Source: Escherichia coli (GTDB lineage: Bacteria > Pseudomonadota > Gammaproteobacteria > Enterobacterales > Enterobacteriaceae). From it: a stretch of DNA of 47,728 nt. Shown piece after piece: positions 7,788-40,486 of the stretch; within the stretch, counting starts at the first letter, position 1, and each line of letters begins with the position of its first letter. Location: the NCBI RefSeq assembly GCF_003334765.1, contig NZ_QOWT01000031.1. One strand, 5' to 3'. The notes under the pieces are model-generated. The model worked only from the letters and a program-made list of their open reading frames with translations. It was not told the DNA's origin and ran no database searches. The position numbers were made by a program, and so were the translations under genes.

Positions 7788-8092
7788 TGACCACATTTAC
7801 CAATAAAGAACTGATTAAAGAAATCAAAGAACGAATCAGCAGCCTAGAGGTTCGAGACGATATTGAGCGCCGTGCTTATGAAATCGCACTCGTATCTCTG
7901 GAAGTAGAGCCAGATGAACGCGAAGCCTATGAATTATTCATGGAAAAGCGTTTCGGTGACTTAGTAGATCGTCGGAGAGTAAAAAACGGCGATAACGAAT
8001 ACATGGCATGGGATATGACTCTCGGTTGGATCGTCTGGCAGCAACGAGCTGGTATCCATTTTTCAACAATGACACAGCAAGAGGTGAAATAA
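7787..8092 (+). CDS. yfdT: YfdT-like prophage protein (101 aa)
   Basis: ORF; its stop overlaps the xis ATG (TAATG). Confidence 0.5.
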   Translation: MTTFTNKELIKEIKERISSLEVRDDIERRAYEIALVSLEVEPDEREAYELFMEKRFGDLVDRRRVKNGDNEYMAWDMTLGWIVWQQRAGIHFSTMTQQEVK

Positions 8093-8463
8093 TGGAGCCA
8101 TACAGCCTCACACTCGATGAGGCCTGTCAGTTTCTTAAGATATCCAGACCAACCGCCACCAACTGGATACGAACAGGCCGCCTACAGGCAACACGTAAAG
8201 ATCCAACCAAGCCAAAATCTCCTTACCTCACAACACGGCAAGCTTGCATTGCGGCGCTTCAGTCTCCGCTGCATACTGTCCAGGTGAGCGCGGGTGATGG
8301 CATAACAGAGGAAAGAAAATGTCACTCTTCCGCAGAAATGAAATATGGTATGCCTCGTATTCGCTCCCGGGCGGGAAACGAATTAAGGAATCTCTTGGCA
8401 CAAAGGACAAGCGGCAAGCTCAGGAGTTGCACGACAAGCGAAAAGCAGAACTCTGGCGAGTAG
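8092..8463 (+). CDS. Excisionase (Xis)-like DNA-binding protein; reading frame runs 145 nt into the integrase gene, possibly C-terminally altered
   Basis: N-terminal about 75 aa resemble excisionase HTH ([26 protein letters not shown]); the rest overlaps int in another frame. Confidence 0.5.
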
Positions 8464-20372: not shown

Positions 20373-21095
20373 GTGGCGACACTCTTTATTGCAGATCTTC
20401 ATCTCTGCGTGGAAGAACCGGCGATCACCGCCGGTTTTCTGCGTTTTTTAGCGGGGGAAGCTCGCAAGGCCGACGCGCTGTATATTCTTGGCGATCTGTT
20501 TGAAGCGTGGATTGGCGACGACGATCCCAACCCACTCCATCGCCAGATGGCGGCAGCGATCAAAGCGGTGTCCGATTCCGGCGTTCCCTGTTATTTCATT
20601 CATGGCAACCGTGATTTTCTGCTCGGCAAACGCTTTGCCCGTGAAAGCGGCATGACGTTATTGCCGGAAGAAAAGGTGCTCGAACTTTATGGTCGTCGGG
20701 TGTTGATTATGCATGGCGACACGCTGTGCACCGATGACGCGGGTTATCAGGCTTTTCGCGCCAAAGTCCACAAACCCTGGCTGCAGACGCTATTCCTCGC
20801 TCTGCCATTGTTTGTGCGCAAACGCATTGCCGCGCGAATGCGCGCGAACAGCAAAGAAGCCAACAGCAGTAAATCGCTGGCGATCATGGACGTTAACCAA
20901 AACGCGGTGGTCAGTGCGATGGAAAAACATCAGGTGCAATGGCTGATTCACGGGCATACCCATCGCCCGGCGGTACATGAACTTATCGCCAACCAGCAAC
21001 CTGCTTTTCGCGTGGTACTGGGTGCCTGGCATACGGAAGGTTCGATGGTGAAAGTCACGGCGGATGACGTTGAGCTGATTCATTTTCCGTTTTAA
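20373..21095 (+). CDS. lpxH: UDP-2,3-diacylglucosamine hydrolase LpxH
   Basis: 240-aa ORF with calcineurin-like phosphoesterase motifs (DLHL, GDLFE, GNRD); 2 bp after ppiB. Confidence 0.9.
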
Positions 21096-35225: not shown

Positions 35226-36680
35226 TTAACCTATGGTTTTTTGCTCTCCTGTTTTTTCTGCTGTTGTACGTTTCTTTAATAAGGCGTAGGCCGCAAAGGC
35301 GACGATGACGCCGACAAACCATGAAACACGCGATAACGGTTCCATAAAGTGAATAAACTTACCGCCAAGAGATAAAATAACGGCCACCAGAGTTACTGAA
35401 AACGCAGTGAGGTTAAAACCGTTATCGTAATATTTATAATCGCCAGGTGCGGTATACAGTTCATCAAGATTAATTTGTCCGCGCATCACCACAAAATAAT
35501 GCGCCATCATGACACCAATTACCGGACCAAGCATTCCGCCGATAATATCGAGGAAAAGATAAATGCTGTCCTGATTTTCCATTAATTTCCACGGGCAGAT
35601 CAGCAAGCTGATAATACTGGCAATCAGTACGCCGTTTTTATAGGTCAGTTTTGTCGGTGCAATGGCGGCAATCTGATAACCGGCTGGAATAATATTACCG
35701 GTCGCGTTAGTGGAGATAGTTGTCATCAGAATAACCAGTACCGCAAAGAACGAGGCGAACAGGCTGTCCCAACGCTGAACAATATCCAGCACGTTCCAGG
35801 TATCAGCGCCGTAGTGAATACTGGCTCCGGCAATAATACATACCCCGGCGACCGCAAACAGAATATAGGCCACAACTAAACCCAGCGTTTGCCCCAGCGC
35901 CTGCTCACGAAACGAGTGGGCGTTTTGCGTAAAGTCGGATGCGCTCACCGCCGGTGCCGCCCAGACCGCAACTACCGCGTTAATCACCACCAGGAACAGG
36001 AAGCCACCGTTTTCTGCTTTCTGAATACCGCTCGGAATGTAGTCAAAGATTGGACCGATCCCGACCAGTGAAATCGCCCAAATCGCCATACCGCCGAAAA
36101 CGATATAGATGCACGGGTTAAGAATGGCAGTGAATTTATTTAAAACTTTGCCACCGCCAAAACCTATACCAACGTTGACCAGCCAGAAGATTAAGAAAGT
36201 AATTAAGCCCGGTAGAGAAAGGCCTAACAGAGTGAAATCACCACCGAGAGTTAAAAATCCCGGCCAGATTTTGCCAATCAGAATCAAGCAGGCCAGTGAC
36301 CCCGCGTAACATTGCAAACCAAACCACATGATGGCGGCAATTCCGCCCCTTAATAATCCGGGAAACAGTGCACCACGTACACCGTAAGAAGCACGCAGGA
36401 TCATGGCAAAAGGCACACCGTATTTACTGCCCGCAGCACCGTTTAATACCATTACCGCGGCAATGAAAAAGGCGCTGAGGATAATTGCCAGCATAATACT
36501 AAAGGTAGACAAGCCGAGAATAAAAAAGCCGCCGACCATCACATAATTGGGAACGTTATGAACCGAACCCATCCATAAGGTAAAATAGTTAAATGTTTTC
36601 CAGGTCCGCTGGCTTTGCGTTTTCGGCAATAGATCTTCGCTATAGCCGCGTTGCTGGAATAGTTTTCTCTGATGTTCCAT
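35226..36680 (-). CDS. ybbW: Allantoin permease (NCS1 family)
   Basis: 484-aa polytopic membrane ORF. Confidence 0.9.
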   Translation of the reverse strand: MEHQRKLFQQRGYSEDLLPKTQSQRTWKTFNYFTLWMGSVHNVPNYVMVGGFFILGLSTFSIMLAIILSAFFIAAVMVLNGAAGSKYGVPFAMILRASYGVRGALFPGLLRGGIAAIMWFGLQCYAGSLACLILIGKIWPGFLTLGGDFTLLGLSLPGLITFLIFWLVNVGIGFGGGKVLNKFTAILNPCIYIVFGGMAIWAISLVGIGPIFDYIPSGIQKAENGGFLFLVVINAVVAVWAAPAVSASDFTQNAHSFREQALGQTLGLVVAYILFAVAGVCIIAGASIHYGADTWNVLDIVQRWDSLFASFFAVLVILMTTISTNATGNIIPAGYQIAAIAPTKLTYKNGVLIASIISLLICPWKLMENQDSIYLFLDIIGGMLGPVIGVMMAHYFVVMRGQINLDELYTAPGDYKYYDNGFNLTAFSVTLVAVILSLGGKFIHFMEPLSRVSWFVGVIVAFAAYALLKKRTTAEKTGEQKTIG

Positions 36681-36848
36681 AAATCCCTCTTAATTTCACG
36701 TATCGAATAACGTTGTTTTAATCTAGCTATGAGGAACAAATAAAATAAAAATATTATTTTTAATACTGAAGCAACATCTTTGGCTGCTTTCTTTTTTAAT
36801 ATTGCTGGCCGATTCATTTTCTGATATCGGCCATTTTTATTGCGGGTA

Positions 36849-37727
36849 TCAGGCCAGTTTATGGTTAGCCATTAATTCCAGCGCCTGCACTAACGCAGAG
36901 TGATCCAACTGGCTGCCACCGTTTGCCGCACAGGTATTAAATAACTCCTGGCAGGTCGCAGTGTTTGGCAGGTTCAGCGCAAGTGCTTTCGCACTTTGCA
37001 GTGCCAGGTTGAGATCTTTCTGGTGCAGAGCGATTTTGAAGCCCGGATTAAAGGTGCGTTTAATCATACGCTCGCCATGAACTTCCAGAATACGTGAGGA
37101 AGCAAAGCCGCCCATCAGCGCCTGGCGCACACGTACCGGGTCCGCACCGGCTTTTGAAGCAAATAGCAGGGCTTCAGAAACCGCTTCAATATTGAGCGCC
37201 ACGATAATCTGATTTGCCACTTTGCAGGTTTGACCATCGCCGTTACCGCCCACGAGGGTGATATTTTTACCGAGCAGTTCAAACAGCGGTTTAACACGTT
37301 CAAATACCGCTTCATCACCGCCAACCATAATCGACAACGTCCCTTCACGCGCACCGATTTCACCGCCGGAGACTGGCGCATCGAGATAATCGCCGCCCAG
37401 TTCATTCACCTGACGAGCGAAACGCTTAGTTTCAATCGGGGAAATGGAGCTCATATCAACAATGGTTTTGCCCTTCAGCGAGGCTTTGGTACAACCATTT
37501 TCACCGAACAGAACTTCTTCAACCTGAGGTGTGTCCGGCACCATAATAAAAATGATGTCCGATGCTTCCGTTACCTGGCGAGCAGTTTCAACACTGACGG
37601 CACCCAGTGACAGTAATTCATCAGCAACCGGTCCAATGGTCGTGACATGTAATTGATGACCGGCACGCGCCAGATTAATGGCCATCGGTGTACCCATAAT
37701 GCCTAAGCCAATAAATCCCAGTTTCAT
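36849..37727 (-). CDS. glxR: Tartronate semialdehyde reductase
   Basis: 292-aa ORF with N-terminal NAD-binding motif (GFIGLGIMG). Confidence 0.9.
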   Translation of the reverse strand: MKLGFIGLGIMGTPMAINLARAGHQLHVTTIGPVADELLSLGAVSVETARQVTEASDIIFIMVPDTPQVEEVLFGENGCTKASLKGKTIVDMSSISPIETKRFARQVNELGGDYLDAPVSGGEIGAREGTLSIMVGGDEAVFERVKPLFELLGKNITLVGGNGDGQTCKVANQIIVALNIEAVSEALLFASKAGADPVRVRQALMGGFASSRILEVHGERMIKRTFNPGFKIALHQKDLNLALQSAKALALNLPNTATCQELFNTCAANGGSQLDHSALVQALELMANHKLA

Positions 37728-40397: not shown

Positions 40398-40486
40398 TTT
40401 ATTCCTACCTCTATTTATTGGAAAATTTTTCCAACTTTCAAATTTTGTCAAAAAAACCCGCTCCGCAGAGCGGGATGCGACAGACA

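Follow-up and report, generated by a model that had tools for sequence, protein, structure and literature searches.

A conserved stem-loop just past glxR probably marks the 3' end of the gcl-hyi-glxR message in Escherichia coli

The short hairpin in the spacer downstream of glxR in Escherichia coli is probably an ordinary RNA stem-loop of the minus strand, one that marks, and may well stabilise, the end of the gcl-hyi-glxR mRNA. The observations behind this reading are the hairpin itself, its conserved position, and a published transcription-unit boundary that lies 4 nt past the stem. From these we infer how the RNA end might be created, that the hairpin would protect the upstream message, and that it could affect the ratio of upstream to downstream expression. 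The preliminary description of this DNA had listed a structural element among several options for a hairpin oriented on the plus strand. That option survives, given the conserved place past the glxR stop codon and the nearby boundary, except that the strand concerned is the minus strand, which carries the genes.

The window, that is, the whole stretch of 47,728 nt that was analysed, contains the E. coli allantoin/glyoxylate cluster, in which glxR and allW (ybbW) both lie on the minus strand; here the earlier account of the flanking genes and the gene coordinates agree. Positions 8224-47728 match K-12 MG1655 at 99.3% identity in reverse orientation, and near the hairpin the MG1655 (NC_000913.3) coordinate equals 574313 minus the window coordinate. 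Positions 1-8223 gave no alignment to the adjoining MG1655 region (the DLP12 prophage side) and have a different gene content, and the strain is therefore not K-12. The spacer between glxR and allW is 168 nt long, contains the hairpin, and is devoid of RefSeq annotation. A former 92-codon open reading frame, ybbV (b0510; 36539-36817, minus), has been dropped from the current annotation, and a literature search on ybbV, on glxR-ybbW and on antisense RNA at the locus yielded nothing specific. The features of the region, in window coordinates and in the order in which the minus strand is read, are:

36849-37727, minus: glxR
36849-36851, minus: glxR stop codon (TGA)
36834-36848, minus: A-rich spacer of 15 nt from the glxR stop to the stem, sense sequence UACCCGCAAUAAAAA
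36806-36833, minus: the stem-loop, from the ViennaRNA fold (0 of 40 shuffles equally stable)
36802, minus (MG1655 537511 +): published transcription-unit 3' boundary, 4 nt past the last paired base
36760-36804, minus: relic of the last ~45 nt of an MFS-transporter gene (Lys-Lys-Lys...Ala-Ser-Ala-stop), from local alignments
36769-36789, minus: weak second hairpin (AAGCAGC CAAAGAU GUUGCUU), inside the MFS relic
36681-36739, minus: conserved block of the allW leader (TTGTTCCTCATAGCTAGATT...CGTTATTCGATACGTGAAATTAAGAGGGATTT), immediately preceding the allW ATG; context rather than part of the hairpin
35226-36680, minus: allW/ybbW

The plus strand at 36806-36841 reads T GGCCGAT TCA TTTTC TGA T ATCGGCC A TTTTTATT, and the minus-strand (sense) RNA of the stem-loop is 5'-UGGCCGAU A UCA GAAAA UGA AUCGGCCA-3'. 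The two 7-bp arms, GGCCGAT (36807-36813) and ATCGGCC (36826-36832), and the plus-strand tail ATTTTTATT (36833-36841) are just as they had been described. The stem had been paired with a loop of 12 nt, and in this respect the structure needs revision: in the ViennaRNA fold a T-A pair (36806/36833) closes the stem, and TCA pairs with TGA in an inner helix. The outer helix has 8 bp (36806-36813 with 36826-36833) and the inner one 3 bp, a single base is bulged (A on the sense strand) and, because of the inner helix, the loop has 5 nt rather than 12. Folded as plus-strand RNA, the sequence has an MFE of -14.5 kcal/mol (z -3.3), a value that 1 of 200 shuffles attained; folded as minus-strand RNA it has -15.4 kcal/mol (z -4.5), which none of 200 shuffles attained. 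Within 60 nt past the glxR stop codon the best hairpin reaches -14.6 kcal/mol, compared with -3.2 +/- 2.7 for dinucleotide shuffles, an energy so far beyond the shuffles that chance, another of the options originally listed, is rejected.

The T-rich tail is a different matter. A loose scan of the 47.7-kb window for hairpins with dG <= -10 and at least 6 T of 9 finds 22 matches on the plus strand and 29 on the minus strand (51 in total), and the T-richness of the plus strand extends for ~120 nt to either side of the stem (AT skew -0.30 to -0.54). The hairpin itself exceeds chance, but the T-tail alone does not. The hairpin looks like a plus-strand terminator because the T-tract TTTTTATTG is simply the complement of the A-rich spacer at 36834-36848. 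An Rfam 15 scan at E <= 10 gave chance-level matches only, none of which reached its gathering score; the best overlapping ones were the pan motif (20 bits against a threshold of 36.2, E = 3.9) and RalA (14.6 against 170).

Regions downstream of glxR were compared in 17 Enterobacterales loci. A hairpin is found just past the glxR stop codon in 16 of them, with energies of -9.7 to -20.9 kcal/mol and a start that lies a few to 26 nt past the stop (48 nt in one locus); Izhakiella, which has no hairpin downstream of glxR, is the sole exception. Forty of 40 shuffles are beaten by 12 of the 16 hairpins, and at least 38 of 40 by three more. The stems differ by genus (for example TGGCCGAT, CCCGCCG, CCGTCGCC, TCGCCACATCA, GCACTGCGC, GGGATGGC and GTATCGCTGCA), and the hairpin is kept whichever gene comes next, be it allW, an MFS transporter (Salmonella, Citrobacter, Enterobacter, Kluyvera) or another gene (Serratia). 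Since it is kept whatever gene follows, and the MFS-adjacent genera lack an antisense T-tail, the common denominator is the glxR 3' end, and the comparison points to a hairpin that is tied to that end. Place and pairing are conserved while the sequence is not, which suggests a structural role at the glxR 3' end and speaks for selection that acts on structure and not on a DNA-binding site. The comparison between genera offers a small, clean case of a hairpin held in place during sequence turnover, even across the deletion of a gene.

Within E. coli, the stem is invariant in 8 sampled genomes, where the sole change in the hairpin is one loop base in an O157:H7 strain, and an 89-nt region is at least 95% identical in ~5,300 genomes. 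Two further Escherichia-type contigs brought no new stem sequences. In a more distant contig assigned to Escherichia sp. (L094), the inner stem is altered and the sequence still folds; the same contig carries an extra ~33 nt (positions 2865-2897, TAAATGAGCATCATGGCTGATGAAGCTACGATG) after the glxR stop and ahead of the A-rich spacer and hairpin. Of the 9 hairpin-bearing loci that have allW after glxR, 8 contain an A-rich spacer (6-8 A of 9-10). The arms of the RIT691 hairpin share 7 of 11 positions with those of E. coli and all four differences are compensated, so that a common ancestry is possible and the two hairpins may descend from one ancestor. Asymmetry between G-U and A-C changes does not assign a strand, as the main stem is fully Watson-Crick and the orthologs have no consistent bias.

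Where do transcripts end relative to the hairpin? PMC10667835, a re-analysis of SEnd-seq data (Ju et al. 2019) mapped to NC_000913.3, lists in row 67 of its Supplementary Table 7 an operon at 532388-537511 (+) with allA, allR, gcl, hyi and glxR and with TTS = 2, flagged as a 'complex operon' with skewed abundance. The boundary at 537511 (+), which comes from one line of this secondary analysis, puts the RNA end at window position 36802 (minus), with the sequence ...AUCGGCCAGCAA-3'. A stable stem lies directly upstream of it and the tail is U-poor, the arrangement of a protective 3' stem-loop. The published transcription-unit tables compared hold no unit that contains allW.

Other 3'-end collections are blank at this place. 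The exonuclease-stop table of PMC10667835 has only 533860 (+) in the operon and then 553874 (-), with none at 5375xx, a gap that could be due to low expression of the operon. Adams et al. 2021 (PMC7815308) give Term-seq lists that likewise pass from 533861 (+) to 553873 (-), with no 3' end at the hairpin on either strand under the growth conditions of that study; the operon is AllR-repressed in the media used and the lists are threshold-limited, so that this negative carries little weight. Tables from TERMITe, TRS and SMRT-Cappable-seq, searched by gene name and coordinate, show no 3' end at the hairpin. Mapping of 3' ends on both strands, which had been proposed as the check, thus returns a divided answer, namely a sense-strand boundary in the SEnd-seq re-analysis and, in the Term-seq lists, none on either strand. 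The two canonical terminators found by the loose scan both coincide with Term-seq 3' ends and serve as positive controls:

40457-40474, minus: allR/allZ terminator (CCCGCTCTGCGGAGCGGG + T7), with a Term-seq 3' end at MG1655 533861/2 (+)
20408-20443, plus: lpxH-internal terminator-like hairpin (GGAAGAACCGGCGATCACCGCCGGTTTTCTGCG + T6) upstream of purE, with an abundant Term-seq end at MG1655 553873 (-), classed as 'internal'

The AllR operator TTGGAAAAATTTTCCAA comes after the allR/allZ terminator, in front of gcl; terminator and operator together lie within 40410-40474 (minus).

A pronounced asymmetry between the strands emerges when the hairpin is judged by the classical rule for terminators. 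The d'Aubenton-Carafa score (d), as computed here, is +8.7 for the E. coli hairpin on the plus strand and about -62 on the minus strand; the allR/allZ terminator, as a positive control, scores +44. The plus-strand stem, at -13.7 to -14.5 kcal/mol, runs directly into the tail TTTTTATT. The sense-strand tail GCAAUAUUA has 3 U of 9, and because the sense tail GCAAUAUUAAAA is almost without U, the rule does not call a terminator on the minus strand. All 16 hairpins in fact score below zero on the sense strand (-8 to -62). The antisense score, positive in E. coli, is also positive in Superficieibacter, Scandinavium, Lelliottia and RIT691 (+12 to +20), near zero in Buttiauxella and Atlantibacter, and negative in the Escherichia sp. 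contig mentioned above, in Budvicia and in all MFS-adjacent genera. Judged by these scores, the look of a 'wrong-way terminator' is real and recurs in part of the allW-adjacent clade.

How, then, could a stem-loop with a U-poor tail come to stand at the end of a message? We propose that the hairpin would act as minus-strand RNA, forming the 3'-terminal stem-loop of that section of the gcl operon which holds gcl, hyi and glxR, and that transcripts reaching the glxR-allW spacer would end with the hairpin at their 3' end. Such ends might arise in either of two ways. Transcription might terminate, inefficiently and in a non-canonical manner, at the hairpin itself, or the RNA might first be terminated or cleaved at a point further downstream and then be trimmed by 3'-to-5' exonucleases as far as the stem. 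By either route the hairpin would set the 3' end and shield the upstream enzyme genes against decay, and read-through transcripts would proceed into allW-allB-ybbY-glxK. In favour of a role on the sense strand, the E. coli sense fold is slightly better than the antisense fold. Against it stand the U-poor tail with its strongly negative score, the Term-seq blank, the absence of 537511 from the exonuclease-stop table, an upstream A-rich stretch that is atypical of the Rho-dependent class of PMC6061677, and the literature, which treats gcl to glxK as one AllR-controlled operon. If the proposal is correct, the textbook gcl-hyi-glxR-allW-allB-ybbY-glxK operon would in practice be split at the hairpin, with the glyoxylate-branch enzymes on a stable upstream transcript and the transporter and allantoinase genes relying on read-through or on signals of their own. 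Such a split would be useful to know for annotation and engineering of the allantoin pathway, though conceptually it is not new.

Elements of this kind are already known, and the glxR hairpin is an ordinary example. E. coli transcripts that lack intrinsic terminators have precise 3' ends just past stable stem-loops without a U-tract, and these ends are made by exonuclease trimming (Dar & Sorek 2018, PMC6061677). The glxR hairpin resembles this class in its stable GC-rich stem-loop, in a 3' end that falls a few nucleotides beyond a stem with a U-poor tail, and in its place at the end of a coding region within a multi-gene cluster with unequal transcript abundance. It differs from the Rho-dependent class in that study in having an A-rich tract before the stem; moreover, trimming is demonstrated for the class, whereas at the glxR hairpin both Rho dependence and trimming are hypothetical. 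A related kind is formed by the intercistronic stabiliser hairpins of 'selective RNA processing and stabilisation' (PMC10667835).

Comparison with the canonical allR/allZ terminator (40457-40474, minus; CCCGCUCUGCGGAGCGGG + U7) is also instructive. The two stems are similar in energy (-14 kcal/mol) and size, and the plus strand of the glxR hairpin has a proper T-tract. Unlike that terminator, however, the glxR hairpin has no U-tract on the strand known to be transcribed (d about -62 vs +44), and its T-tract strand has no known transcript or 3' end. The group that produced the SEnd-seq data reportedly described bidirectional intrinsic terminators, built of an A-tract, a hairpin and a U-tract, between convergent genes. 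The glxR hairpin is like these in folding symmetrically on both strands and in having an A-tract on one side, and unlike them in that glxR and allW are co-directional rather than convergent and that only one of the two tracts is present.

The history of the spacer explains part of its A-richness. In Salmonella, Citrobacter, Enterobacter and Kluyvera an intact MFS-transporter gene lies between glxR and allW. From window position 36804 downward, the E. coli sense sequence CAATATTAAAAAAGAAAGCAGCCAAAGATGTTGCTTCAGTATTAA... aligns with the 3' end of this gene (positions 4149-4223 of locus L082 and 4657-4728 of L003, and also L004 and L084), and the homology runs on past the end of the gene into its downstream spacer. 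The E. coli spacer is therefore the scar of a deletion by which Escherichia lost the MFS gene. Judged from these alignments, the second hairpin and the A-rich, U-poor sense tail of the main hairpin are relics of Lys-rich C-terminal codons. The second hairpin (-6.6 kcal/mol on the minus strand, z -2.1; -5.6 on the plus strand, z -1.5), after which the plus strand reads TCTTTTTTAAT, is homologous to coding sequence and is probably not a functional element. For the ~43 nt with the main hairpin, no homolog could be detected in Salmonella, Citrobacter or Enterobacter, which carry GTATCGCTGCA...TGCAGCGATAC at its place, and a junction search for homology to the hairpin inside the MFS gene of Salmonella and Citrobacter gave only chance-level local matches (scores 18-25).

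A possible origin at a deletion junction raises the question of whether the hairpin does anything at all. It might be an accidental palindrome at the junction of the MFS deletion, without function in E. coli and resembling a terminator by virtue of AT-rich composition, and both the unmatched ~43 nt and the frequency of loose terminator-like matches (~1 per 2 kb per strand) fit with this. We nevertheless consider such an accident unlikely: the hairpin is ~4 sd more stable than shuffles, its stem and surroundings are nearly constant across E. coli (8 genomes and ~5,300, as given above), an equivalent hairpin occupies the same place in 15 other loci, and a transcript boundary lies 4 nt away. Still less probable is an element that works as DNA, either a palindromic protein-binding site or a REP/BIME-like repeat. 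The near-perfect inverted repeat TGGCCGAT...ATCGGCCA would suit a binding site, but the arm sequences vary between genera while the ability to pair persists, and the hairpin belongs to no Rfam family. A repeated extragenic palindrome of the REP/BIME kind, which occurs in many copies, is ruled out by single copy per genome: in a test on 5,426 E. coli genomes, the hairpin had a median of 1 place per genome in 5,324. An AllR operator was likewise considered and rejected, as the real operator TTGGAAAAATTTTCCAA upstream of gcl in the same window bears no resemblance to it.

A stronger rival, possible though in our view doubtful, takes the plus-strand look at face value. The hairpin could be an intrinsic terminator that stops antisense or divergent transcripts before they enter glxR-hyi-gcl; such transcripts would start in the AT-rich allW leader or in the early allW coding region, and this function could coexist with a role on the sense strand. 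Much of the sequence fits the antisense stop that had been suggested at the outset: a GC-rich stem is followed directly by the T-tract, d is positive on the plus strand and strongly negative on the minus strand, and the same asymmetry is built from different stems in Superficieibacter, Scandinavium, Lelliottia and RIT691, where the hairpins are flagged as terminator-like on the antisense strand. The transcripts themselves are harder to find. No plus-strand Term-seq 3' end falls here, yet both canonical terminators from the same scan were detected by that method. The T-richness is not confined to the tail but extends over the ~120 nt on each side of the stem, and on the side near allW it is a relic of Lys codons, that is, in part of the deleted gene. 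The asymmetry is also missing from the L094 contig, from Budvicia and from all MFS-adjacent genera, although the hairpin is kept there. As for a promoter, no promoter-like site was detected on the E. coli plus strand within 1.2 kb upstream, and a rough PWM yields matches of only 5-8 bits, on both strands of the AT-rich spacer. Superficieibacter, Scandinavium, Lelliottia and RIT691 do have a sigma-70-like site, flagged on the antisense strand where it spans the start codon of allW. Its -35 is TTGGTA or TTTATA and its -10 CATAAT, with 18 nt between the two; where these genera have that -10, E. coli has CATAAA, without the key final T. The site lies at the following positions of their loci:

L002 3484-3513, antisense: sigma-70-like site across the allW start
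L088 2976-3005, antisense: sigma-70-like site across the allW start
L090 2984-3013, antisense: sigma-70-like site across the allW start
L006 3506-3535, antisense: sigma-70-like site across the allW start

These promoter-like matches sit in conserved coding sequence, so that their recurrence is not independent evidence. That they are found in the same four genera that hold the best antisense terminator scores is suggestive, with the qualification that these taxa may be closely related. A bolder version of the idea, which we regard as a long shot, is that the hairpin terminates a ~90-nt cis-antisense RNA in a subset of the Enterobacteriaceae and perhaps, residually, in E. coli. Such an RNA would start from a promoter lying across the allW start codon (CATAAT reads ATTATG on the opposite strand), span the conserved allW leader and its ribosome-binding site, and stop beside the glxR stop codon. 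It would add a layer of antisense control over expression of the allantoin transporter and would account for two features at once, the unusual conservation of the allW leader and the 'wrong-way' terminator.

The allW leader deserves comment in its own right. Its ~60 nt are strongly conserved in all 9 allW-adjacent loci compared, and the block also lies upstream of allW in Salmonella, Citrobacter and Enterobacter, beyond which the sequence is unrelated. The consensus fold is weak, with GUUCC pairing with GGAAC at the start codon (-4 kcal/mol) and one covarying pair. The block has no resemblance to the AllR operator, and among boxes of the PurR, FNR, CRP and NAC types, judged by eye, none was convincing. 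The block could be an unrecognised promoter or operator, or a leader RNA of allW.

This region is altered in some E. coli genomes. In two of them (NZ_AP022245.1 and NZ_CP103758.1) the match is not intact: in one, an IS1 near glxR/allW splits the match in two, and the other keeps only 8% of the 701-nt query, on the glxR side. The glxR of an ST131 genome carries an internal stop and is annotated as a pseudogene. The allantoin/glyoxylate cluster is undergoing erosion in some E. coli lineages.
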